DNA from: Candidatus Hecatellales archaeon
GTDB taxonomy: Archaea > Thermoproteota > Bathyarchaeia > Hecatellales > Hecatellaceae
Direction of reading: 5' to 3'
DNA: 64,000 bases
Assembly (NCBI GenBank): GCA_003661965.1
Contig: QMXD01000002.1
Location: forward strand, 2,377 to 66,376
The translations under genes were made by a program, and so were the position numbers. This document shows positions 21,857-58,389 of the stretch, piece by piece. The notes under the pieces were generated by a model. The model was not told the DNA's origin. It did not search any database and saw only the letters and a program-made list of their open reading frames with translations. The first letter of the stretch is position 1. Each line of letters begins with the position of its first letter.

Positions 21857-23137
21857 CTACATAAAATCCTGAAGACTTAAACTTTTCTTGGATGGTTTTC
21901 CAGTTTCCTCTTTTTTCTCGTCTATGATGAGTTTCCCATATACACCATCATATCCAGGTTCAACCTTCACCCTATCCTCCCTAACATCCACTATCACCTT
22001 TGCAGCCTCCTTCCCAACAACCTCAGCAATCTCCTCAAACCTTGCCTCAAGCAAAACCTTATACTCGTTCCCAAACCTGTTTACAAGCCTACCGTAAACC
22101 TCCCATGTTTTCCTGTTTGATGGGCTTCCAAAACCAAAAACCCATGCTAAAATCTCAGATAAAGGTAAAAGATGAACATAGCCAGGTCTGTTTGGAGGTT
22201 TATATCCTTCAGGTCTGTCAGCCAACTCTTCAACCCTCTCCTCAACACCCTTAGTCATCCTCCTACCACATACGGGGCATATTCCCCCATGTTTTATAGC
22301 CTCAGATGCTGGCATAGAAACACCACAACCTCTATGTCCAGTCCAATGGTATTTTCCGTAGGCAGGGTTTACCTCTACCGTAAAAAGAATTTTTTCAGGG
22401 TTTCCAGACCTAACAGCCTCAACAATCTCACGATAACTAAAATTTTTAACCTCTAAAACGTTTGCCTCCCTTCCAAGTCTCCAAGGCCAATAGCTATGGC
22501 TGTCGGAGTTTGATATTATTGTTACTTTGTCAAGTTCACTGATTCTCCAGTTCATTGGTGGGTCTGAGGATAGTCCTGTTTCTAAAGCAAAAATTTTGTT
22601 TGATTTGTCTTGGTAGCATTCTTTTAGGCTGTTAAATCCGCTAAAGGCTCCAAAAAGACTAAACCATGGTGTCCATGCGTGGGCTGGGAAAACAACGTTT
22701 TCTTTTGACACTTCTAGGGTTACTTCAACAAGTTCTGGTGGTGTTGTTTTTAGGGTTGGTCTTCCATCAGCCTCTAAAGAGCCGTATTTGGCTAAAACCT
22801 CGTTAACCTGTTCTGCTGTTTCAAGGGATGGTGTCCATATTACATGGTGTATTCTTTTTGTTTTTCCCTCATAGTCAAAAACGGTGTTGACCTCTGTTGT
22901 TACCATAAAAAAGACTTTAGAATCTTTTTGGTTTCTGACAACATATAATCCACTATCGTTAAACTCAGCAAGGTTTTCTTTTAACTCTTTAAGCCATAAC
23001 GGATGGGTAAAATCTCCTGTTCCAACAACGTTTAACCCTTTAATTTGGGCGTAGTAGGCTATGTTTTTAACGTTCATATCTTGGCTTGTAGCCCTACTAT
23101 ACCTTGAATGGAGGTGGGCATCCATAAAAACCCTCAA
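21857..23137 (-). CDS. endoQ: Endonuclease Q (PHP-domain plus zinc-finger DNA repair nuclease for deaminated bases)
   Basis: N-terminal PHP motifs (MDAHLHSRYSRATS; GLNVVGTGDFTHPLW; HHVIW; PAHAWTPWFSLFG; SNSDSHS), a CPVCG zinc finger, and a length of ~426 aa, all matching EndoQ architecture. Confidence 0.65.
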   Translation of the reverse strand: MRVFMDAHLHSRYSRATSQDMNVKNIAYYAQIKGLNVVGTGDFTHPLWLKELKENLAEFNDSGLYVVRNQKDSKVFFMVTTEVNTVFDYEGKTKRIHHVIWTPSLETAEQVNEVLAKYGSLEADGRPTLKTTPPELVEVTLEVSKENVVFPAHAWTPWFSLFGAFSGFNSLKECYQDKSNKIFALETGLSSDPPMNWRISELDKVTIISNSDSHSYWPWRLGREANVLEVKNFSYREIVEAVRSGNPEKILFTVEVNPAYGKYHWTGHRGCGVSMPASEAIKHGGICPVCGRRMTKGVEERVEELADRPEGYKPPNRPGYVHLLPLSEILAWVFGFGSPSNRKTWEVYGRLVNRFGNEYKVLLEARFEEIAEVVGKEAAKVIVDVREDRVKVEPGYDGVYGKLIIDEKKEETGKPSKKSLSLQDFM

Positions 23138-23179: not shown

Positions 23180-24505
23180 CTAAAAATTTTTAGATTCTTC
23201 GTCTACCAAAACCAAAATTAAAACTAAACCCACAAAAGAAACAGCAAGAATAAGGTTTAGGGTAACATCTGTTAAAGCTAAAGGTTGAATTTGGCTGGAG
23301 GTAACCTCAAACTCCACAGTTTTAACATTCTCCCCATTCACCTTAAAAATAAAGGTGTAGTGTCCAGGCCTAAGAAACCCTAAATTATAGGTTGAGGATT
23401 CTACAGTTATTACTTGGATTGCTGGTCCCTCCCAAGCTTCAACTTTTGCATCCACACTAAACACAGAGTTTTCTTTTTTAAGTGTTCCCCAGTCAACATG
23501 AAAATCTCCACTTTTAAAGGTTATGGAAACCTTAGCTAGGGTTTCTCCGTTTTTGGTTTTTTCTATGGATATTTTAACTTGTTCTGGGTTTGGCTTGTAT
23601 AGGGTCCATTTCCAAGCCTTAAGAAGGAGGTCTTCTTTGAGGTTTTGGAGGCTTCCCCTATAGGTGATAACTGAAAACCTTATGGTTTGGTTTGGCTGGA
23701 ATAGGTTTGCTATTCTTTTGTCTGCTTCAGCAACAACTTTTAACGGTATAATTTTGTTTCTCATTACCACCATGTAGTTGTTGGCTGGTAGGGTTGCTGG
23801 AAACCTTATCCTATCACTTGTTAAAAGAAAAACTGTGATGCTGGTTTTTCCTTTGGCTATAGAGGAAATTTTTAGTGGGAAGTATGCCTCCTTAGAGTCG
23901 AATTTATACATTAAAGGTTTAACTGTTTTAATGTTTTCTCCAACGTTTACAAGGTCAAAAACAAAATATTCAAATCCACGTTTAGTGTAGTCGTTAACAA
24001 GGCTTAAAACCTTCTCAAGGTTTGGTTTTGGAAGCCCATGTTTCCCTGTAAAATCTTCAACCCAACGAATAAAGTCTTTTGTATCCTTAACCCTAACCAC
24101 CGTAACATCATGAACACCTATCTTCTCATGGAAAACTACCTCTACACCCTCAACACCAGCTAAACCCTTCCCATAAACAACCCTTTTAGACCTAAAATAC
24201 CTTAACAAAACATCAAAAGACTTGGGTGAAGCCTCCTCAATTTCTGGTTTTGAGGGTAGGGGGAGAACCTCTAAAACAGGAGTTTTACCCTTAAGGGTTT
24301 TTAAATCAACCGAAAGAATAAGAATCTCCTTTTCACCGTTCCATGCAACTATAGCTTTTTGGCTTGGCTCATAGATTGGTATGTCACCTATTGGAATAAC
24401 ACCCTTATCAGCATAGGCTAAAAAACATGTTTGGCTAAGCAGGAAAACTGAAAATATTAACGTTAGTAGAAGCTTTTTTGTCAAGCTTTTCAACCAAGTT
24501 AACAT
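23180..24505 (-). CDS. Exported hypothetical protein with N-terminal signal peptide and C-terminal transmembrane anchor
   Basis: N-terminus LTLIFSVFLLSQTCFLAYA (signal-like) and a C-terminal hydrophobic helix LNLILAVSFVGLVLILVLV followed by DEESKNF. No catalytic motif was recognised. Confidence 0.5.
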   Translation of the reverse strand: MLTWLKSLTKKLLLTLIFSVFLLSQTCFLAYADKGVIPIGDIPIYEPSQKAIVAWNGEKEILILSVDLKTLKGKTPVLEVLPLPSKPEIEEASPKSFDVLLRYFRSKRVVYGKGLAGVEGVEVVFHEKIGVHDVTVVRVKDTKDFIRWVEDFTGKHGLPKPNLEKVLSLVNDYTKRGFEYFVFDLVNVGENIKTVKPLMYKFDSKEAYFPLKISSIAKGKTSITVFLLTSDRIRFPATLPANNYMVVMRNKIIPLKVVAEADKRIANLFQPNQTIRFSVITYRGSLQNLKEDLLLKAWKWTLYKPNPEQVKISIEKTKNGETLAKVSITFKSGDFHVDWGTLKKENSVFSVDAKVEAWEGPAIQVITVESSTYNLGFLRPGHYTFIFKVNGENVKTVEFEVTSSQIQPLALTDVTLNLILAVSFVGLVLILVLVDEESKNF

Positions 24506-32387: not shown

Positions 32388-33212
32388 ATGGTGGGTATAA
32401 ATTTAGAGAGGATTGTTAAGAAGGTTGTAGAGGATTTAAAGGATAAAGGAAGGGTTGCTGTTGCTTTTTCTGGTGGTGTTGATTCTGCTGTTGTTACAGC
32501 TTTAGCCTATAAAGCCTTAGCTGAAAACTCTTTAGCTGTAACCATAGATTCTCCTTTACTTCCCTCAGGAGAACTTTTTGACGCAAAAAAGGTTGCGAAA
32601 AGTGTTGGAATAAAACATTTGGTTGTTAAGTTTGATGAGTTTAAGATTTCTAGATTTGCAGAAAACCCGTTAAACCGTTGTTACCTATGCAAAAAACACC
32701 GTTTTATTTTTTTAAAAAAGTTTTTGGAGAGGAGGGGGTTTAAAGTTATTGTTGATGGGACGAGTTTAAGCGACCTAAAAGAGTATCGTCCAGGGGTTTT
32801 TGCCTTAAAAGAGGAGGGAATTTATAGTCCACTTTTAAAGCATAAGATAGATAAAAATTTAGCAAGAAAAATTGCGGTTTTTCTTGGGCTTCCAAACCAT
32901 GATAAACCACCTAATACATGTTTAGCTACAAGGTTCCCCTACGGTTGTAAGTTAACCCCGGAAAAGCTAAAACGTGTGGATAAAGCTGAAAAATATCTTC
33001 GTGAACGTTTTGGTGTTAGGGTTGTTAGGGTTAGAGACCATGATGGGTTAGCAAGAATAGAGGTTGGAAAAAAGGATTTTAGGCTTCTTCTAAAAAGGGA
33101 AGCTATGGATAAAATTTCTGTTAGATTTAAAAAGCTTGGTTTTAGGTTTGTAACCTTAGACCTTGAAGGGTATAGGTTTGGAAGTTTTGATAGAGTAGCC
33201 TTAAAACGTTAA
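32388..33212 (+). CDS. PP-loop ATP pyrophosphatase, LarE/TIGR00268 family
   Basis: PP-loop VAFSGGVDSAV, conserved CYLCK, and a length of ~274 aa. Confidence 0.65.
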   Translation: MVGINLERIVKKVVEDLKDKGRVAVAFSGGVDSAVVTALAYKALAENSLAVTIDSPLLPSGELFDAKKVAKSVGIKHLVVKFDEFKISRFAENPLNRCYLCKKHRFIFLKKFLERRGFKVIVDGTSLSDLKEYRPGVFALKEEGIYSPLLKHKIDKNLARKIAVFLGLPNHDKPPNTCLATRFPYGCKLTPEKLKRVDKAEKYLRERFGVRVVRVRDHDGLARIEVGKKDFRLLLKREAMDKISVRFKKLGFRFVTLDLEGYRFGSFDRVALKR

Positions 33213-34345
33213 CCATAAGCTTTTATTATCTGGTAGGTTGTGGTTCTTTCTGCAGGAATTCTTCCAGCATCTTTAATTACTCTCACTATTTCTTCTACAG
33301 GAAGGTTTTGACCTGTGGTTGCCCCAGCAGCCCTAGAAATATTTTCCTCCATCAGAGTTCCACCAAAATCGTTTGCGCCAGCATTTAAGGCTACCTGAGC
33401 AAACTTTACCCCAAGCTTAACCCATGAAACCTGAATATTATCTATTAAACCGTTAAAAAATATTCTTGAAACAGCATACATTTTTAGGTCTTCAAAGCCT
33501 GTTGCTCCAGGTTTTGATTTCCCCTCCAAATAGATTGGGGTGTTCCAATGGACAAAGGTTAATGGGACAAACTCTGTAAAGCCATGTGTTTCCCTCTGGA
33601 TTTCTTTTAGCATGGATAGGTGGACTGCCCAATCTTCAGGTTTATCTATATGTCCATACATGATGGTTGAGGTTGAAGGTATACCAAGCCTATGTGCAGT
33701 TTTAACGGTTTCAACCCACTCTTTACAGGTTATCTTTTTAGGGCAAATTTCTCTTCTAACCTCATCAACCAAAATTTCAGCTGAGGTTCCAGGGATACTT
33801 CCAAGCCCAGCCTCCTTTAACATTTTTAAAGTTTCTTTTACGGTTAACCCTGCTTTACGGCTACCATAAACAATTTCCATGGGTGAAAATCCATGGATAT
33901 GGATTTTTGGTGTATAAGCCTTAATACTTTTAACGATTTCCTCGTAGTAGTAGGCGTCGATTTTTGGGTGAAGCCCCCCCTGAACACAAACCTCCGTTGC
34001 TCCCATAAGCCAAGCCTCTTTAGCCTTTAACCCTACCTCTTCAGGTTTTAGCAGGTAGGCTTCAGGGTCCCCTATTTTTTTGCTGAAAGCACAAAAGCCA
34101 CAGTCGTTATAGCATACGTTTGTAAAGTTTATGTTTCTGTTACAAACATAGGTAACTATGTCTCCAACCTTTTTACGTCTTAACCAGTCAGCAACAAGAA
34201 TTAAAGCTTGAAAATCCAGGTTTTTTGTTTTAAAAAGTTCTAGGGCTTCCCCTCTAGAAACCTCTTTTCCATCTAGGGCTTTATCTAAAATTTTTGCAAC
34301 TATAGGGTCTAAAGCCTTAAAAAACTCCTCTTTAAATGTCTCCAT
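33209..34345 (-). CDS. cofH: FO synthase subunit CofH (radical SAM; F420 chromophore biosynthesis)
   Basis: Radical-SAM motif NFTNVCYNDCGFCAF (the CofH/MqnC-like CxxxCxFCAF variant). It is adjacent to and overlapping cofG. Confidence 0.8.
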   Translation of the reverse strand: METFKEEFFKALDPIVAKILDKALDGKEVSRGEALELFKTKNLDFQALILVADWLRRKKVGDIVTYVCNRNINFTNVCYNDCGFCAFSKKIGDPEAYLLKPEEVGLKAKEAWLMGATEVCVQGGLHPKIDAYYYEEIVKSIKAYTPKIHIHGFSPMEIVYGSRKAGLTVKETLKMLKEAGLGSIPGTSAEILVDEVRREICPKKITCKEWVETVKTAHRLGIPSTSTIMYGHIDKPEDWAVHLSMLKEIQRETHGFTEFVPLTFVHWNTPIYLEGKSKPGATGFEDLKMYAVSRIFFNGLIDNIQVSWVKLGVKFAQVALNAGANDFGGTLMEENISRAAGATTGQNLPVEEIVRVIKDAGRIPAERTTTYQIIKAYG

Positions 34346-35579
34346 TTTTCACGTAACCTTCCGAATCAACCCTCTCAAAAACCGTATCCTTAAATTTTTC
34401 CGGAATAAACCAAGGTTTTTCTTTTACATATTCTGGGTAAATAGGTAAACGTTGCTTTAAAACAAACCCACAATTTTGGGTGATTTCTTTTAACTCGTAA
34501 AGTTTAGGCCAAGGTTTTTCTGGGTTTATATGGTCTGGGGTTATGGGTGAAACTCCACCCCAATCGTTTATTCCAGCGTAGGGGAGTAGGTCTATTATGG
34601 GTTTTGTTAGGTTTGGTGGAACCTGAATATTCATGTTTGAACCAAAAAATATTCTTGCAACAGCAACTGTTTTAAGTAGGGTAAACCATGAGGGTTCAGG
34701 ATGGTTTTCCATTGGTGTGCCTTTTTTAGCCATAAAAGGCTGAATAATAATTTCTTGTAGATGCTGATATTTTTCATGAATTTCTCTTAAAACGTTAAAA
34801 GAGTCTATAATTTCTTCTGGTGTTTCACCAATACCAAGCAGAATCCCTGTGGTAAAAGCTATATTTAGTTTTCCAGCATTCTCTATTGTTTCTAAACGTA
34901 TTTTTGGGTTTTTCCCAGGACTAAACTCATGCGGTCCACCTTTTTCGCAAAGTCTACTGCTAACGTTTTCAAGCATCAAGCCTAAGCTTAGGTTAACCTC
35001 TCTTAAATCCCTTAAATCTTCGATGGTTAAAACTCCAGGGTTGCTGTGGGGTAGGAGTCCTGTTTTTTCAAAAACGGTTTTACACATGTCGTATAGGTAT
35101 TCTATGGTTGTGTTGTAGCCTAACCTTTTTAGCTGGATTTTTGCTTCCCCGTATTTTTCTTCAGGTTTTTCTCCTAATGTGAAGAGAGCCTCGTTACATC
35201 CCATTTTTTTTCCTTTTTCAGCTATTTCTAAAACTTGTTTGGGGGTTAGAAAACCAGCCTTTTTGTTTGAGGGTTCTAGTCGAAAACCACAATATTTACA
35301 TGCGTTTCTACATAGGTTTGTTAACGGTATAAAAACCTTTTTTGAGAAACTTACTTTATCTTTTTTCCCCTTAAACTTTAGGAGGTTTGCTGTAGCCATT
35401 AAAACTGGTAGATGTTTAAAGTCTAGGTTTATTAGCTGATATGCCTCTTCAACGTTTATCTTTTTTCCTTCTAAGGCTTTAGCTAAAATTTCGCCTATGT
35501 TAGCTTCAAAGTCACCAATAGTCGGTTTTTGCTTGTCTTCTAAATCCTTTTTAAGGTTTTGAAGGTTTAGTTTTCCCAC
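34332..35579 (-). CDS. cofG: FO synthase subunit CofG (radical SAM)
   Basis: LTNLCRNACKYCGF, the CofG-type CxxxCxYC motif. The length is 415 aa. Confidence 0.8.
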   Translation of the reverse strand: MGKLNLQNLKKDLEDKQKPTIGDFEANIGEILAKALEGKKINVEEAYQLINLDFKHLPVLMATANLLKFKGKKDKVSFSKKVFIPLTNLCRNACKYCGFRLEPSNKKAGFLTPKQVLEIAEKGKKMGCNEALFTLGEKPEEKYGEAKIQLKRLGYNTTIEYLYDMCKTVFEKTGLLPHSNPGVLTIEDLRDLREVNLSLGLMLENVSSRLCEKGGPHEFSPGKNPKIRLETIENAGKLNIAFTTGILLGIGETPEEIIDSFNVLREIHEKYQHLQEIIIQPFMAKKGTPMENHPEPSWFTLLKTVAVARIFFGSNMNIQVPPNLTKPIIDLLPYAGINDWGGVSPITPDHINPEKPWPKLYELKEITQNCGFVLKQRLPIYPEYVKEKPWFIPEKFKDTVFERVDSEGYVKNGDI

Positions 35580-35580
35580 T

Positions 35581-36246
35581 TTAACCCTTCCTTTTATAGG
35601 TTAAAACTAGGTCTTCTCCAGCTTTTTCCACCTTAACAAGTTTAAGCTTTAATCCTTCTCTCACCCTTGTATATCCCTCACCCTCCACAAGTGTTATGGC
35701 TTTTTTTCCTCCAACAATAACTGGGGCTATTGCAACCCTAACCTCGTCAACAAGGTTTGCTTTAACCATACCCCAGTTAAGGTTTCCCCCACCCTCAACC
35801 ATAAGTGTTTTAATTTTCATTCTCCAAAGTTTTTTAAGTAAAAGTTTTAGGTTAACTTTTCTCCCTGAACCCGAAACAACAATTTTTGCTCCTGCCTTTT
35901 TTAGGGCTTTAAGCTTCTTTTTTGATGCTTTACTTGTAACAGCAATAACTATCCTATCGTTTCCCCTATACTTGAATATGTTTGCGTTTACAGGTGTTCT
36001 GGCTAAACTGTCAACAACTATTTTTGTTAAAGGGTTTTTACGTGGATGTTTTACCCTTAGCTTAGGATTATCGGTTAAAATTGTTCCTATACCAACCATT
36101 AAACCATCAACCTTTGCTCTAAGCCTATGAACCCTCCTCCAATCTTCCGGGCTTGAAATTTCAGAGTCACGAGTTTTTGTTGCAATTTTTCCGTCAAGAG
36201 TCATAGCAGCGTTTAAAATTACGTAGGGTCTATTTTCTATTTTCAA
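35581..36246 (-). CDS. 2,5-diamino-6-ribosylamino-4(3H)-pyrimidinone 5'-phosphate reductase (archaeal riboflavin pathway, DHFR-like)
   Basis: ILNAAMTLDGKIATKTRDSEISSPEDW...LMVGIGTILTDNPKLRV...GGGNLNW matches the RibD-C/ArfC-like reductase domain. Confidence 0.7.
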   Translation of the reverse strand: MKIENRPYVILNAAMTLDGKIATKTRDSEISSPEDWRRVHRLRAKVDGLMVGIGTILTDNPKLRVKHPRKNPLTKIVVDSLARTPVNANIFKYRGNDRIVIAVTSKASKKKLKALKKAGAKIVVSGSGRKVNLKLLLKKLWRMKIKTLMVEGGGNLNWGMVKANLVDEVRVAIAPVIVGGKKAITLVEGEGYTRVREGLKLKLVKVEKAGEDLVLTYKRKG

Positions 36247-36250
36247 AGTT

Positions 36251-37504
36251 TTATCCCTTCAACAATCCAACCCTATCTAAAACTTTTTTTCCCTCAACTA
36301 AAACTATTTTTATGTTTTCAGGTCTACCCCTAACTATCAAAGAGGCTAAAATGTTATGGGAAAAAGCCAAATTATCCATGGTAAAATCTATAAAGACTAG
36401 GTTTGCAAGTTTTCCCTCCTCTATTGAGCCTACCTTATCCTCTAAACCAAGAATTTTTGCACCGTTTATGGTTGCCATCCTAAAAATCTCCTCTAAAGGT
36501 ATGGGTGGAAAACTTTTTTCAAAAATGTTTGCAAGATTTAAAATGTAACTCATCTCCTCAAACATGTTTGGCTGATTAACCATAACATTATCAGAACCTA
36601 AAGCCACAGTAACCCCCATACCCAACATTTTTTTGATTGGTGGAAAACCTAAGCCAAGCTTAAGATTTGACCTAGGACAAACAACAACACCAACCTTCGC
36701 CTCCACAACCTCTTTAAGGTCTTCATCTGTTGGATGGGTAAGATGAACAAGAAAATCTGCCTTTAAAAGTTTAACAGCCCTATAAACCTCACTATAATCC
36801 GTTCTCCTCCTCGATATTTCTTGGGTGGCTGGATGTTCAGCAACATGGGTTGCTATAAGCTTTTTACCCTTAAAAATACTTGAAAACTGTTTAAGAGCCT
36901 TATCCGTATACTCGTTTGGACTGCTTAACCCAATTCCATCAGCAAACCTAAAAATCTTATAGGTTTCCTTTAAGGCTTGACCTGAAAGAGGCTTCAAATT
37001 TTTTTCTAGGTCTTCTTCATCCATATAGTAGTTTGGTCTACCCAGAATTATCGGCTGAATTCTAAAACCTTCTAAGGCTTCCCTTAAAACTTTAATACCT
37101 TTAACCCCACCCTCCCTAAAATCAGCAAAAGTTGTTATCCCTAAGGCTAACATATCTCTTAGGGTCGACCTTATTCCACGAATAAGAGTTTTCCTGCTGG
37201 TTTTTCTAAGAAACCTATGTTTTAAACCGTTTGGAGGTTTCATAAGGCTTAAAAGATCCTGTCCAAAACCAAGCTCTTTTGCAGCGGAATCTCCAAGATG
37301 AATATGTGTGTTAACAAATCCTGGTATAACAAGAAAACCTTTTCCATCTATTCTTTTTGATGTTGAACCTTTAAACCTTCCAGAACCAACCTCAACAATT
37401 TTTTCTCCATCAACAGCAACATACCCATTCCTAATAATCTTCATTTCTCTACCTGCAACAACCATTATCCTCTCAAAAACCCTCATTCCAACTTCAAAAC
37501 ACAA
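36251..37504 (-). CDS. Amidohydrolase-family metal-dependent hydrolase/deaminase
   Basis: HxH metal motif in GFVNTHIHLGDS and later His/Asp positions. The length is ~400 aa. The true start is probably an internal Met (MRVFERI or MVVAGREMKII). Confidence 0.6.
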   Translation of the reverse strand: MCFEVGMRVFERIMVVAGREMKIIRNGYVAVDGEKIVEVGSGRFKGSTSKRIDGKGFLVIPGFVNTHIHLGDSAAKELGFGQDLLSLMKPPNGLKHRFLRKTSRKTLIRGIRSTLRDMLALGITTFADFREGGVKGIKVLREALEGFRIQPIILGRPNYYMDEEDLEKNLKPLSGQALKETYKIFRFADGIGLSSPNEYTDKALKQFSSIFKGKKLIATHVAEHPATQEISRRRTDYSEVYRAVKLLKADFLVHLTHPTDEDLKEVVEAKVGVVVCPRSNLKLGLGFPPIKKMLGMGVTVALGSDNVMVNQPNMFEEMSYILNLANIFEKSFPPIPLEEIFRMATINGAKILGLEDKVGSIEEGKLANLVFIDFTMDNLAFSHNILASLIVRGRPENIKIVLVEGKKVLDRVGLLKG

Positions 37505-37547
37505 AAAAATCTACCTGTTTAAACCTTTATTTTCCCCTATAAACTAA

Positions 37548-38585
<1,038 letters not shown>

Positions 38586-38600
38586 AAATATTTTTAGTGA

Positions 38601-38675
38601 TGGGCCGGGCCGGATTTGAACCGGCGACCTTTCGGTTATCAGCCGAACGCTCTAACCAGGCTGAGCCACCGGCCC
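38601..38675 (-). tRNA. tRNA-Ile (anticodon GAU), no encoded CCA
   Basis: The reverse complement folds as GGGCCGG acceptor, D-arm GCTC/GAGC, anticodon stem TTCGG/CCGAA with loop CTGATAA, and T-arm GCCGG-TTCAAAT-CCGGC. Confidence 0.85.
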
Positions 38676-38742
38676 GCTTTTTGTCTTCTAAAATTATCCT
38701 TCATTTGGTTTGTTTTTAAAGTTTTGTTTTAAGGTTTTGAGG

Positions 38743-40284
38743 TTAGATTACGTTTTCTTCTATGGTTGACTGTTTGATTTGTAGGTGTGTTTTCCTGTTT
38801 TTGTTTTCTGGTTTATGTTCGTCTAGGTATTCTTTGTAGTCGAATATTTTTATTGGGACTGCAAAATGGATTTTTGGCTGGGAAACTAGTAGGGCTTCAC
38901 CAACATCCAACATTTTTAGTTCTGTGTCTGAGTATTCTAGGTATGGGGTGTTTTCTGAAAGATAGTTTCTGTCGTCTTTTAGGGTTGTTTTAAGTATTAT
39001 TTTTGTCCATAGTTCTGCAAAAACATCCTTGTTTATTCCTGATGGTCTTGGGGTTACAGCGTTTAATCCAACCTTATATTTTCTGTAGGTTAAGGCTATA
39101 TCAGAAAAAATTGTGTCTTTTTCAGCTAAAAACTTGTGTGCTTCTTCAAGGGTTATAAGTAGGTAGGGTAGTCTTCTCCAAGAGTTAAAATCTTTACGCC
39201 AAAGCTCCCTATAATATTCAACAACCCTACCTGCAACCCAACATACAACCTGTCTTTGGGTTTCTTCACGTAAACCTGAAATGTCAACAAGAACAGTCTT
39301 ATTTTTTGTTAATGCATCTATAACGGAATAGGTAAAATCATAGTCAACATCAACAAATATTTTTTCGTTTAAACTTGAAAGTTTTCTTAGTAGTGCTTCA
39401 ACAACACCTTTTTGTCTTGTTGGTGTATGTCTAATAACACCATCAACATCCTCACTCTCATAGATTTCTAGGGTTTTTGTTATCCAGTCTGGTGAGCCTA
39501 TCCTATTGTAAAGCTTTTCTGCGTAGTGTTGCTGGGGGCTTGTAAGGTCTGGAAGAAGAAAACTTAAGCTTTTTGGTGTAAGTTTTCTTAACCCTATCTG
39601 CATTACCCCATAAGGAACCTTTTTTTCAGGTTTTTCCGTCCCAAAATATACAAGGTTTTCCTGTGCATATGGGTGGTCAGCTAAACCTTTCCCTATCTCC
39701 TTTCCTGTTAAAAGTTCTCCAGCAAAATCAAAAATTAAGCCTACAGCCTCTCCCCCTGTAAACATTATTGATGCGTTTAAAACAAGTTCAGCGTTTGTTT
39801 TACCTGAACCTATCTGTCCAACTATAGCCATCATCCTAGGAATATTTTTAACATCTAACCCAACAGTCTTTTTTGTTACAACACCACCAGAACGTAAATA
39901 GCCTATTTCAAGCTGACCTGAAATTTTTAATGTTTCATAGTCGGTTTCATCAAGAGTTTCAACAATCCAACCGTAGTCTGGGTTTAAGGTTGGCGCTCTA
40001 ACAACACCATCCACATCCCTTTCAAGAAAAACCACAGCCTCAATATACCGGTATTGGGAATACGGTCCAACTGTCCTCATAGAACCCTTTAAATCTTGAA
40101 GTTCAGGGACTTCTTCAAGTGTTGATTTACTTCCAGCATCTGTTATTCTTGAATAGTAAATTTTGGATGAGTTTTCTCCACGAATCTTTATAAGTTGTCC
40201 GTAGCTTACAGACTCGTTGCTGGTTGCAACAAGTATAACTCTGTCTCCCTTGCTTTGTTTAACCTTCCCTATCTCCCTACCCAA
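38743..40284 (-). CDS. herA: HerA-family ATPase/helicase (DUF87)
   Basis: N-terminal HAS-barrel-like segment, Walker A MAIVGQIGSGKTN, Walker B LLITLEEAHKF, and a C-terminal ...RPSGINKDVFAELWTKIILKTT... typical of HerA. Confidence 0.7.
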   Translation of the reverse strand: MGREIGKVKQSKGDRVILVATSNESVSYGQLIKIRGENSSKIYYSRITDAGSKSTLEEVPELQDLKGSMRTVGPYSQYRYIEAVVFLERDVDGVVRAPTLNPDYGWIVETLDETDYETLKISGQLEIGYLRSGGVVTKKTVGLDVKNIPRMMAIVGQIGSGKTNAELVLNASIMFTGGEAVGLIFDFAGELLTGKEIGKGLADHPYAQENLVYFGTEKPEKKVPYGVMQIGLRKLTPKSLSFLLPDLTSPQQHYAEKLYNRIGSPDWITKTLEIYESEDVDGVIRHTPTRQKGVVEALLRKLSSLNEKIFVDVDYDFTYSVIDALTKNKTVLVDISGLREETQRQVVCWVAGRVVEYYRELWRKDFNSWRRLPYLLITLEEAHKFLAEKDTIFSDIALTYRKYKVGLNAVTPRPSGINKDVFAELWTKIILKTTLKDDRNYLSENTPYLEYSDTELKMLDVGEALLVSQPKIHFAVPIKIFDYKEYLDEHKPENKNRKTHLQIKQSTIEENVI

Positions 40285-40287
40285 AAC

Positions 40288-41346
40288 CTATTCACCTTCA
40301 ATATCTTCTATCATGTCAAAGTCGTAGGTTAAACCAAGCAAATGTTTTCTAAAACCAGCAACATCAGACTCCCTAAGAAGAAACTCAAGCAAACCTTCTC
40401 TATCTAAATTTAGTTGAACAAGCTCAAAATACTCTAAAAGTTTTGCTCTAGGTATTCTTGTTCTTTCATGAGCTAAAAACAGTGGAGCAGGATAACCGTT
40501 GCATCTTGCATCCATCGATAAACCTGCAAGCTCGGATAGAATTTCAGCAAGATATTTTTTTCCTTTTTCCACAAGATAATCCATAATATCACATCGGAAA
40601 ACTCTTGGACTTAAAGGTGAAAGTTTAACACATGTAACATCCCCATAAAGGTTTTTTCTGTTTGCAGCCTCAAGTATTGGATGGTAAAACCAGCATTTCC
40701 CAAGTTTACCTTCCCTTTGAAGTTTTAACCCGTAAAGGTTTATGGTTGTAAGTAAATCCCTATTTTTTTCGTCATGAAGGTTTGGAGAGTTTTTAGGTAT
40801 CATTAAAAGCTTTATTTTCTTCTTTAAACATGCCTGATAAAGCTCCACAGAATAGCTGCTTCCACCTCTCATACCAAAAAATGCTGCTCCATCCATCAAA
40901 CAAAAATCTTCGCTATCAAGTTTTTTAACAAGCTTTATAGCCATCTCACTTTCATACTCTCTAAGCTTGGTCCAAATCCTATATTTTCTTTCGTTTATGG
41001 GGGCTATGGTGGAAAAAATATGGTCTTGGTATCCCTCCTCTGAAACCACCCATCTCCCATTCAAATTTTCTACGATAACGTAGGCGCAACGGCTAACCCC
41101 TATACGCCAATTGTTTCCCCTCATTAAAGGATAGGATGAAGCATCAACCGAAAGAAATTTTACTTGGGCTTCCTTAGGATTTATCTCTAAAAACCTTGAA
41201 GGATAAATTTCATCTGCTATAAAGGGTTCCTCAACCTGAATTTTTTCGTTGCTGTATCCCTTCTCAATATACCTTTTTACCTCTTCGATACACTTTTTTA
41301 GGTCTAGCTCCACCTTTAACCCCAAAAGATTTTTAGGGTAAACCAT
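40288..41346 (-). CDS. nurA: NurA-domain 5'-3' nuclease
   Basis: FLSVDASSYPL...IGVSRCAYVIV and a later LMDGAAFFG resemble the NurA catalytic motifs. The gene is immediately upstream of herA with a 3-bp gap. Confidence 0.6.
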   Translation of the reverse strand: MVYPKNLLGLKVELDLKKCIEEVKRYIEKGYSNEKIQVEEPFIADEIYPSRFLEINPKEAQVKFLSVDASSYPLMRGNNWRIGVSRCAYVIVENLNGRWVVSEEGYQDHIFSTIAPINERKYRIWTKLREYESEMAIKLVKKLDSEDFCLMDGAAFFGMRGGSSYSVELYQACLKKKIKLLMIPKNSPNLHDEKNRDLLTTINLYGLKLQREGKLGKCWFYHPILEAANRKNLYGDVTCVKLSPLSPRVFRCDIMDYLVEKGKKYLAEILSELAGLSMDARCNGYPAPLFLAHERTRIPRAKLLEYFELVQLNLDREGLLEFLLRESDVAGFRKHLLGLTYDFDMIEDIEGE

Positions 41347-41429
41347 TATTTAAGGAAGAGAGGCTAGTAAAAGTATTTTATTTCTCGTAAAGAAAACTAT
41401 TAAGAAGATAGGTTAAGGGTGGATGACCT

Positions 41430-42059
41430 ATGAAGATAATGATTCTTTCAGATTTTCATGGTGTGGCAAGGTTTGCAGAAAAAATGAGGGATTTAGCTGT
41501 TTCACAAAAGTTTGATTGTATAGTTGTTTGTGGAGACCTAACAGACCTTGGACCCGTCAAGGTTGCACGTCAAATAATAGGAACCCTATCAGAGTCAAAG
41601 CTTCCAGTTTTATACGTTCCTGGAAACATGGACCCTAGAAACCTTGTGGACGAGTTGGATTCGGGTTTCCATGTTCATGGTAGGGGGAAGATTATTGGTG
41701 ATGTTGGTTTTGTTGGTGCAGGCTCCTACAGTAACCTTAAGGGTTTGCTTGAGCAAGGATTAAAAAGTTTGGTTAAAACTCCTAGGTTTCTTGTTTTTGT
41801 AACCCATGTTCCACCAAAGGGGACTAAGGTTGATTTGGCTTGGGATGGTTCCCATATTGGAAGTTTGGAGGTTAGGGAGGCTGTTGAAAAGTATAAGCCA
41901 AACCTTGTTGTTTGCGGTCATGTTCATGAGGCTAGAGGTGTTGATAGGATAGGTGAATCTGTTGTTTGTAATCCCGGACCTGCCTACAACGGTTTTTATG
42001 CTGAGGTTTTTTTGGATGAAAAGGTTAAGGTTAAACTTTTAAGCCTTAAAACTGTTTAA
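41430..42059 (+). CDS. Metallophosphoesterase (calcineurin-like, YfcE/MJ0936-type)
   Basis: MKIMILSDFHG, CGDLTD, GNMD and CGHVHE are metallophosphatase motifs. At 209 aa it is too small for Mre11. Confidence 0.7.
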   Translation: MKIMILSDFHGVARFAEKMRDLAVSQKFDCIVVCGDLTDLGPVKVARQIIGTLSESKLPVLYVPGNMDPRNLVDELDSGFHVHGRGKIIGDVGFVGAGSYSNLKGLLEQGLKSLVKTPRFLVFVTHVPPKGTKVDLAWDGSHIGSLEVREAVEKYKPNLVVCGHVHEARGVDRIGESVVCNPGPAYNGFYAEVFLDEKVKVKLLSLKTV

Positions 42060-42222
42060 GGTTTTTGGTGGGTGTGGTTATGCTGTTGAATAGGATTAGG
42101 GTTACACCATAATCCAGCAGTTAGCCTTAGCCTATATAGGTGAACGTGTTTTAGGTTTACCAAAATCCTATTAGCCTAACCTAAGGTTACATTTTTAATT
42201 TAGAACTGTTTTTGAAATATTC

Positions 42223-43029
42223 ATGGAGTTGTTTTTTCTTGGAACTGGTGGTGGACGTTTCTCAATAATAACCCAAAAAAGAAGAACTGGTGGAATTAGA
42301 ATAATCCATGATAAGCTAAACATACATTTGGATCCTGGACCTGGAGCCCTAATTTATTCTCTTGAGAAAAACATGGATCCTAGAAAGATAAACATGGTTA
42401 TGGTTTCTCATTCACATCCAGACCATTATACTGATGCTGAAATTCTTATTGAGGCTATGACTGGTGGTGCCCTAAAAAAGTCTGGAACCCTTATTTGTGC
42501 AAAAAGTGTAACCGTTGGAAACGATGTTTGCGGTCCCTCAATATCAAAATACCATAAAAGTCTTCCAAGGGAGGTTGTTGAGTTGGAGGCTGGTGGAAAA
42601 TATGTTTCTGACGCTGTTAAAATTGAGGCTGTTAAATCTATCCATTATGACCCTGACACTATAGGGTTTAAGTTAACGTTTTCGGATGGAAAAACTTTGG
42701 GTTATACTTCGGATACAGAATATTTTGAGGGTTTGGGGGAAGCCTATAAAAACGTTGACCTTCTTGTTTTGTGTGTTATAAGACCTAGAGGTATGCCTCT
42801 TAAATGGCATATGTGTATTGATGATGCTGTTAAGGTTGTTGGGGAGGCTAAACCTAAAAAGGCTATTTTAACCCATTTTGGTATGAGGATGATTCTTAAC
42901 ACAACACCAGAGGTTGAAGCAAAATATGTTGAGGAGCAGACAGGTATACCTACTATTGCGGCTTATGATGGGATGGTGTTTAGGGTGAAGAGGGGGGAAA
43001 GAAAAAAAGATTTAACAAGCTTTCTTTAA
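42223..43029 (+). CDS. MBL-fold metallo-hydrolase
   Basis: LGTGGG...VMVSHSHPDHYTD...; 268 aa. Confidence 0.6.
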   Translation: MELFFLGTGGGRFSIITQKRRTGGIRIIHDKLNIHLDPGPGALIYSLEKNMDPRKINMVMVSHSHPDHYTDAEILIEAMTGGALKKSGTLICAKSVTVGNDVCGPSISKYHKSLPREVVELEAGGKYVSDAVKIEAVKSIHYDPDTIGFKLTFSDGKTLGYTSDTEYFEGLGEAYKNVDLLVLCVIRPRGMPLKWHMCIDDAVKVVGEAKPKKAILTHFGMRMILNTTPEVEAKYVEEQTGIPTIAAYDGMVFRVKRGERKKDLTSFL

Positions 43030-56345: not shown

Positions 56346-58379
<2,034 letters not shown>

Positions 58380-58389
58380 AAAAAATTTT

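Follow-up and report, generated by a model that had tools for sequence, protein, structure and literature searches.

A stand-alone nurA-herA locus in a Hecatellales (Bathyarchaeia) archaeon: a probable DNA-end-processing pair and its metallophosphoesterase neighbour

Results

The nurA-herA locus

We analysed a 64,000-nucleotide stretch of DNA (hereafter the window) from contig QMXD01000002.1 of a Candidatus Hecatellales archaeon, a member of the Bathyarchaeia within the Thermoproteota. The subject of this study is the region at positions 38,601 to 43,029 of the window, where genes for the ATPase HerA and the nuclease NurA lie next to a tRNA-Ile gene and two hydrolase genes, and which very probably encodes a native, vertically inherited NurA-HerA machine of this archaeon. 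The region contains the following features (aa, amino acids):

38601-38675, minus strand: tRNA-Ile(GAU), called by ARAGORN with anticodon GAT
38743-40284, minus strand: herA, a HerA/FtsK-superfamily ATPase of 513 aa (PF01935) and predicted hexameric DNA translocase
40288-41346, minus strand: nurA, an RNase-H-fold nuclease of 352 aa as annotated (PF09376 and fold search)
41347-41429: divergent intergenic region with conserved putative nurA promoter elements (six-sequence alignment)
41430-42059, plus strand: small metallophosphoesterase (MPE) of 209 aa, TT1561/aq_1956-like (PF14582)
42223-43029, plus strand: MBL-fold hydrolase of 268 aa, RNase Z/PhnP-like (PF12706)

The nurA gene lies upstream of herA with a spacing of 3 bp, and the herA stop codon is 67 bp from the tRNA gene, which is co-directional with herA and on its downstream side. 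Calls of open reading frames (ORFs), ARAGORN and Pfam all confirmed the coordinates, the two gap lengths and the Pfam-level gene identities that had been given in an earlier reading of this DNA (the original prediction).

Sequence and structure of HerA and NurA

Pfam recognizes HerA over residues 126-347 (PF01935, 49.8 bits; gathering score 23.2). Among solved structures the closest relative is HerA of Sulfolobus solfataricus (4D2I, E-value 6e-23), with which the window protein aligns in two stretches, residues 82-191 and 301-484, and the HerAs of defence systems in the PDB match it at an E-value of 3e-7 or weaker. Among the NCBIfam models HerA_Thermprot ranks first (93.3 bits), followed by CedD (71.5), euryarchaeal HerA (43.8) and antiphage HerA (24.9). 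The grouping of HerA was judged from these model and PDB score rankings, taken as a proxy for phylogeny. By this measure the protein sides with crenarchaeal repair HerA over the defence HerAs, only distantly, and the grouping with euryarchaeal repair HerA that the original prediction had considered was not found. On these scores the window HerA belongs to a distant clade and is no equivalog of a characterized repair HerA. The Walker A motif GSGKT (residues 160-164) and the Walker B motif LEEAH (377-381) are at least 98% conserved among 120 orthologues and align with GSGKS and IEEAH of S. solfataricus HerA (SsoHerA).

The Pfam assignment of NurA is marginal (PF09376, 24.4 bits against a gathering score of 21), and sequence searches of the PDB, with the single sequence and with a profile, gave nothing significant (2YGK at an E-value of 0.94 with the profile). 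The assignment was settled by fold search. An AlphaFold model built from 21 orthologues, with a predicted local distance difference test score (pLDDT) of 87.3, has S. solfataricus NurA (SsoNurA, 2YGK) as its top Foldseek match in the PDB, at an E-value of 1.8e-11 and over the full length (352 columns). Further fold matches are EndoV, TM1739 of Thermotoga, NurA of Deinococcus radiodurans (E-value 1e-5) and PfNurA of Pyrococcus. Across 20-21 orthologues there is no variation at D68, E132, D152, K185, Y285 and H293. The catalytic set of SsoNurA comprises D58/E116/D133 and the K202/Y298 pair (PMC3326311), and D68/E132/D152, K185 and Y285 of the window protein match that set by order and spacing (PMC3326311). 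Since the motifs and catalytic residues are intact and conserved, HerA and NurA both look active, as judged from the sequences and the NurA model.

The start and promoter region of nurA

A TATA-like box, CTTAAATA, at 41347-41354 on the minus strand is invariant in six genomes and abuts the annotated nurA ATG at 41346. A second conserved block, AATACTTTTAC, lies upstream at 41367-41377 on the same strand, and in an alignment of six orthologous intergenic regions the blocks AATACTTTTAC ... CTTAAATA are invariant or nearly so. Judged by the archaeal TATA-box consensus, they form a candidate nurA promoter. The closest NurA orthologues start 11 codons inside the annotated ORF. Because CTTAAATA abuts the annotated ATG and the orthologues begin 11 codons later, the true nurA start is probably the GTG at 41313, giving a protein of 341 aa, and with this start the divergent intergenic region would lengthen to about 116 bp. 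A sigma-70 promoter and terminator scan showed no enrichment, the sigma-70 model being uninformative for an archaeon.

Gene content of the window

A Pfam scan covered 28 of the 53 window ORFs of at least 150 aa, and a 21.5-kb twin contig (L001) has precomputed annotation. Within this coverage the 64-kb window encodes nothing resembling Mre11 or Rad50, which bears out the earlier remark that mre11 and rad50 are missing here. The 209-aa MPE is the sole Metallophos match among the scanned ORFs, and the only window ORFs above 600 aa encode carbamoyl-phosphate synthase (1088 aa) and a class-I aminoacyl-tRNA synthetase (aaRS, 801 aa). Additionally, a broad HerA profile detected no second HerA-like ORF in the window. 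The scanned ORFs, bar two poorly characterized ones, belong to housekeeping or metabolism; examples are CarAB, SRP54, PdxS, deoxyhypusine synthase and succinyl-CoA synthetase, together with a branched-chain amino-acid ABC transporter, CofG/CofH, LeuA and the class-I aaRS.

Synteny and distribution in the Bathyarchaeia

The block of aaRS, MBL, MPE and divergent NurA-HerA genes is kept in five related genomes (loci L003-L007), with HerA 60-88% and NurA 38-59% identical, and the same order occurs in L017-L019. In Hecatella orcuttiae three small genes lie between the MBL and aaRS genes. The tRNA-Ile gene follows herA in L005 and L007 and does not in L003 and L004. The original prediction had pointed to synteny in relatives as informative, and the same neighbours are indeed present in the five related genomes.

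The top 120 HerA database matches listed are 48-100% identical to the window protein, and all those named belong to the Bathyarchaeia group; the relatives come from Hecatellales and from other Bathyarchaeia metagenome-assembled genomes (MAGs). A HMMER search over 1.84 billion representatives returned five HerA clusters (at 50% identity) above 300 bits, after which scores fell below 170 bits. By these searches the window HerA clade is compact and class-specific.

In L008 and L009, whose HerAs are about 50% identical to that of the window, the pair lies between cdc6/orc1 with the PolD small subunit DP1 and the PolD large subunit DP2, with no adjoining MPE or MBL gene and no mre11 or rad50. Two other features of these loci (L008 4388-19157, L009 4953-20602) are recorded here: a conserved 141-aa ORF without a Pfam family precedes NurA-HerA, and a gap of about 750-800 bp after cdc6, with one small called ORF inside, may be a replication origin.

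No mre11 or rad50 gene was found beside the pair in seven distinct Bathyarchaeia loci, with flanks of up to 10 kb on each side as the contigs permitted. A search of all the collected loci for archaeal Rad50 and Mre11 also found none, a weak negative that used single-sequence phmmer with bacterial SbcC/SbcD over limited flanks. Because none of the seven examined loci has mre11 or rad50 nearby, the stand-alone pair is normal in this class, and unlinked mre11/rad50 is the rule for NurA-HerA in the Bathyarchaeia, not an anomaly. The original premise that herA and nurA are normally embedded with mre11 and rad50 fails in these seven loci and also in a Thermoprotei outgroup MAG (L011), where a stand-alone pair lies among metabolic genes without mre11 or rad50. 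A second outgroup, L012, has a bacterial NurA-HerA-SbcD-SbcC cluster. With its nearest outgroups being repair-type or stand-alone, the window clade appears to group with repair-type pairs. Our literature search found no survey of Rad50, Mre11, HerA or NurA across the Bathyarchaeia.

Composition of the locus and the adjacent tRNA gene

GC content is flat across the nurA-herA region. The GC content, the GC content at third codon positions (GC3) and the synonymous-codon likelihood of the four protein genes are within about 1.3 standard deviations of the window's 53 genes, and by tetranucleotide distance the region 38601-43029 ranks 51st of 55 equal-sized segments, among the least deviant. The comparison of GC and codon use between 38.7-43.0 kb and the rest that the original prediction had proposed thus gave a native composition. 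No second copy of the tRNA-Ile 3' end was found in the window, where the only similar sequences were the T-arms of other tRNAs with 3 mismatches. The herA gene sits 5' of tRNA-Ile, and the tRNA 3' end points away from it. Elements that target tRNA genes do not insert on the tRNA 5' side. With no 3'-end repeat and with herA on the 5' side, tRNA-Ile was rejected as an integration site.

No integrase, Sir2 or DUF4297 effector was found among the 28 scanned ORFs or in the twin contig annotation. In PADLOC the best match of HerA scores 58 bits and covers the C-terminal ATPase core only (residues about 326-469), and there is no match for NurA or MBL. The suggestion of a defence or genome-maintenance island beside the tRNA gene is thus unsupported, given the native composition, the lack of an att-like repeat, the synteny and the partial PADLOC matches. 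Because its composition is typical, no tRNA 3'-end repeat is present and synteny is kept in relatives, we conclude that the locus is native and vertically inherited, not a mobile or defence island.

The metallophosphoesterase and the MBL-fold hydrolase

The MPE matches PF14582, PF12850 and PF00149 at about 60-64 bits each, and its sequence is identical to that of a protein annotated in a Candidatus Hecatellales archaeon MAG. Against the YfcE model TIGR00040 it scores 46.9 bits, under the cut-off of 56.25, so that of the earlier label "YfcE-type metallophosphoesterase" the enzyme class stands and the YfcE part is only approximate. The predicted metal ligands D8, H10, D36, N66, H126, H164 and H166 are invariant. 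Its structure model (pLDDT 96.9) is a single domain whose closest folds are aq_1956 (2YVT) and TT1561 (1UF3), at E-values of about 1e-13 and template-modelling (TM) scores of 0.75-0.82 on the query. Rv0805 and GpdQ follow, and SbcD and Mre11 cores are interleaved from rank 8. The Mre11 and SbcD models of NCBIfam gave no match. The protein was rejected as a short Mre11, being of 209 aa without a capping domain, a match to an Mre11/SbcD model or an adjacent Rad50; the earlier remark that it is too short for Mre11 agrees with the single-domain model and the model search. As a side observation, the PADLOC model PDC-S10, a candidate single-gene defence system, picks up the MPE family at 58-62 bits (window 41430-42059; L014 6001-6645).

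All Hecatellales-type loci have the MPE gene pointing away from nurA. L014, from the Bathyarchaeales, also carries a family member (40% identical), here placed immediately after a NurA-HerA pair so that stop and start codons overlap; that pair is essentially unrelated to the window pair (about 23% identity or less). This second arrangement (type 2) occurs on Bathyarchaeales-type contigs, where NurA (about 400 aa), HerA (about 500-525 aa) and a small MPE are encoded co-directionally in the following loci:

L014, 3291-6645: type-2 NurA-HerA-MPE
L068, 3171-6669: type-2 NurA-HerA-MPE
L039, L061, L066, L081, L090, L093 and L094: further type-2 NurA-HerA-MPE loci

Across L014 and 8 metagenome loci the type-2 MPE gene lies 0-48 bp downstream of HerA, the starts sometimes overlapping. 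The type-2 HerAs are 66-78% identical to each other and represent one orthologous operon. We also observed that type-2 HerA scores slightly higher on antiphage HerA models than on repair models, and that L068 (124-5967) carries a tandem of HerA-NurA, a nitroreductase and NurA-HerA-MPE.

The MPE family was sampled in 80 metagenome loci, the flanks of which were searched with HerA and NurA profiles. Upstream sequence exceeded 500 bp in 60 loci, and in 10 of these HerA is the immediate upstream neighbour, three being divergent and window-type and seven co-directional and type-2. Because the type-2 HerAs form one orthologous group unrelated to the window pair, these loci amount to two independent linkages of one MPE family with two different HerA-NurA pairs, which by gene order is suggestive of a partnership. 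No description of MPE linkage with HerA-NurA was found among the papers searched.

The MBL-fold hydrolase matches PF12706 (Lactamase_B_2) at 81.9 bits and keeps its HxHxDH motif intact; in the PDB it is related to RNase Z and TM1162. We rejected it as a bona fide RNase Z, as it scores 64 bits on TIGR02651 against a cut-off of 293. Its gene lies beside MPE in window-type loci and in no others, and these loci also retain the unrelated aaRS gene. Because that gene is conserved alongside, the MBL linkage is explained by plain synteny; the MBL is a lineage-specific neighbour, and no evidence that it belongs to a module was found in these loci. The earlier idea that both hydrolases matter thus gains some support for MPE, through the second linkage, and none for the MBL, which is linked only in Hecatellales-type loci.

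Other features of the window

The two poorly characterized genes are both on the minus strand, at 21857-23137 (426 aa, no Pfam family) and 23180-24505 (441 aa, DUF2330). Just beyond tRNA-Ile, at 33209-38585, lies an F420-themed cluster of two radical-SAM genes (CofG/CofH type, one with CofH_C), a RibD_C reductase, an amidohydrolase and a luciferase-like oxidoreductase of the F420-dependent type. A molybdopterin oxidoreductase gene at 56698-58321 on the plus strand appears broken, as a pseudogene or through an assembly frameshift. A 60-aa ORF (56698-56880) holds its Cys-ligand region, the main ORF of 456 aa is in another frame and begins at profile position 143, and the 3' end of the latter overlaps tRNA-Leu (58292-58380, minus strand). 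The homologue in L007 has 708 aa.

Discussion

The comparisons made here support the view that NurA-HerA of the window is a new, diverged member of the known repair-type DNA-end-processing modules. This reading builds on the identity of the two proteins, their motifs, the NurA fold, the native composition, the synteny and the lack of nearby mre11/rad50, all of which were observed directly. The original prediction had considered a DNA-end-resection module, and at the level of homology this is supported by the motifs, the fold and the closest relatives.

Based on the Sulfolobus complex (PMC3326311, PMC5715905), we infer a mechanism and a repair role for the pair. The HerA hexamer, with ATP, would drive duplex DNA into the NurA dimer, whose narrow channel would take the unwound strands for 5'-3' and endonucleolytic degradation. 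The output would be recombinogenic ends or cleared broken forks, and the likely roles would be the resection of double-strand-break ends and fork rescue. The nurA and herA genes would be co-transcribed from the conserved candidate promoter and, given the 3-bp gap here and the overlaps in relatives, would probably be translationally coupled. In this class the pair would work from a locus separate from any mre11/rad50, with tRNA-Ile, the MBL and the aaRS as presumably unrelated neighbours. The divergent MPE may be an accessory end-processing enzyme, as its gene linkage suggests. If MPE is a partner, its most economical role would be the processing of blocked or 3'-phosphate ends, or that of an Mre11-core-like 3'-5' nuclease.

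Several results weigh against this interpretation. HerA misses the repair equivalog level of NCBIfam (NF040937 and NF040819) with 93.3 bits against a cut-off of 800 and 43.8 against 970, and NurA reaches 16.5 bits against an equivalog cut-off of 400. Identity to characterized proteins is about 25% for HerA and about 18% for NurA, and at such low identity the pair could be a lineage-specific paralogue with a role in another DNA transaction. Furthermore, the Bathyarchaeia carry several paralogous HerA-NurA pairs, as in L068 with two in tandem. With regard to the MPE partnership, only two linkage events speak for it, and HerA is absent from L013 and L015 and from 50 of the 60 MPE loci whose upstream sequence exceeds 500 bp.

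The alternative that survives best is a module of three or four components, in which NurA-HerA would have MPE, and perhaps the MBL, as its metallo-nuclease partner, taking over the function of Mre11(-Rad50) in this lineage. We regard it as possible and rather doubtful. In its favour, MPE and nurA diverge in all Hecatellales-type loci, the same family (about 40% identical) lies 0-48 bp downstream of a different HerA in L014 and 8 further loci, and 10 of 60 MPE loci with sufficient upstream sequence have HerA directly adjacent. The MPE fold is common to Mre11 and SbcD cores, Mre11 of Sulfolobus binds HerA (PMC2288612), and no mre11/rad50 was seen near any Bathyarchaeia pair within the limited flanks. 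However, the linkage events number only two, since the type-2 HerAs are one orthologous group, and no such MPE lies near the orthologous pair of L008 and L009 (type 1, as in the window). MPE is nearer to uncharacterized PF14582 proteins and to cyclic-nucleotide and glycerophospho-diesterases than to Mre11, and it lacks the capping and Rad50-binding parts, while linkage of the MBL is confined to loci that also conserve the unrelated aaRS and is explained by plain synteny. The corresponding proposal, that the PF14582 MPE is a recurrent third subunit of Bathyarchaeia HerA-NurA, recruited independently twice and giving an Mre11-like end-cleaning or 3'-5' nuclease without Mre11-Rad50, is likewise offered tentatively.

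It is unlikely that the window encodes a diverged HerA-NurA paralogue for other DNA pumping, such as segregation, origin or terminus resolution, or import and export of the Ced type, in place of end resection. Such a role would fit the ranking of CedD, a DNA-translocating ATPase, as the second-best NCBIfam model (71.5 bits), the position of the L008 and L009 orthologues between cdc6/orc1 and PolD, the scores far under the repair-HerA cut-offs and the several paralogous pairs in the Bathyarchaeia. Yet NurA, with intact catalytic residues, is strictly co-inherited and tightly spaced with HerA, which fits translocation coupled to degradation; no Ced-type membrane or pilus components occur among the flanking genes annotated or scanned, and the best matches remain the Sulfolobus repair HerA and NurA.

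Finally, a defence-associated HerA module or a small island inserted at tRNA-Ile is largely refuted and very improbable: HerA matches several PADLOC HerA models, MPE matches PDC-S10 (58 bits), a tRNA gene is adjacent and HerA-based defence systems are found in the PDB (8xau, 8wiv and others), but the PADLOC matches of HerA are partial (about 326-469) and at most 58 bits with none for NurA, the 28 ORFs and the 21.5-kb twin contig hold no Sir2/DUF4297 effector or integrase, composition is native, synteny with the housekeeping aaRS extends over five genomes, the pair is class-wide and at the replication-gene cluster in other orders, and there is no att-like repeat with herA on the tRNA 5' side.

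For the preferred reading, a diverged repair-type NurA-HerA pair, the significance lies in its organization. In the Bathyarchaeia HerA-NurA forms a stand-alone, class-wide pair that has diverged far from the Sulfolobus and Pyrococcus proteins and that in some orders sits at a replication-gene cluster, and this part of the Thermoproteota does not conform to the textbook herA-mre11-rad50-nurA operon. The repeated MPE linkage leads to a testable hypothesis for the role of an uncharacterized family and for how resection may start without adjacent Mre11-Rad50. We consider the linkage of MPE to two different NurA-HerA pairs a new, modest lead; the rest is ordinary.

Comparison with known systems

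The HerA-NurA complex of Sulfolobus/Saccharolobus (4D2I, 2YGK) is the best solved relative of both window proteins. Walker A and an IEEAH-type Walker B are common to the two HerAs, and the RNase-H-like fold and the D-E-D and K/Y residues to the two NurAs. Hydrophobic residues near the conserved Tyr are also alike (L289/F290/L291 in the window protein, I295/F300 in SsoNurA; PMC3326311), and in both systems the genes are adjacent and co-directional. In contrast, identity is only about 18-25% and the equivalog cut-offs are missed (93 against 800 for HerA, 16.5 against 400 for NurA). In the window nurA precedes herA, and neither the operon nor the 64 kb contains mre11/rad50.

Functional stand-alone nurA-herA duets among metabolic genes have been described in Thermus and Deinococcus (PMC5448004, PMC9960219). 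These duets (PDB 7F6D) resemble the window locus in having nurA followed by herA with stop and start codons that touch or overlap, in lying among metabolic genes without mre11/rad50, and in their host-like GC content and lineage-conserved synteny. They differ in being bacterial acquisitions, whereas the pair described here belongs to an archaeal, class-wide clade, and NurA of D. radiodurans is a weaker fold match (E-value 1e-5) than SsoNurA.

The HerA ATPase core is also common to the Sir2-HerA and DUF4297-HerA defence systems. These differ from the window system, where the matches are partial and low-scoring, no effector partner was found in the ORFs and annotation searched, and the locus is conserved and native.

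TT1561 (1UF3) and aq_1956 (2YVT) are the top structural matches of the window MPE and belong to the same Pfam family, PF14582, although they are only 21-22% identical to it and are themselves uncharacterized. Mre11 and SbcD have the two-metal MPE core fold and motifs in common with the window protein, and Mre11 partners with HerA-NurA in Sulfolobus (PMC2288612). Unlike those proteins, which have about 330-410 aa, the window MPE has 209 aa and is without a capping domain, Rad50-binding helices and an adjacent Rad50, and in its fold search the Mre11 cores rank under PF14582 proteins and phosphodiesterases.

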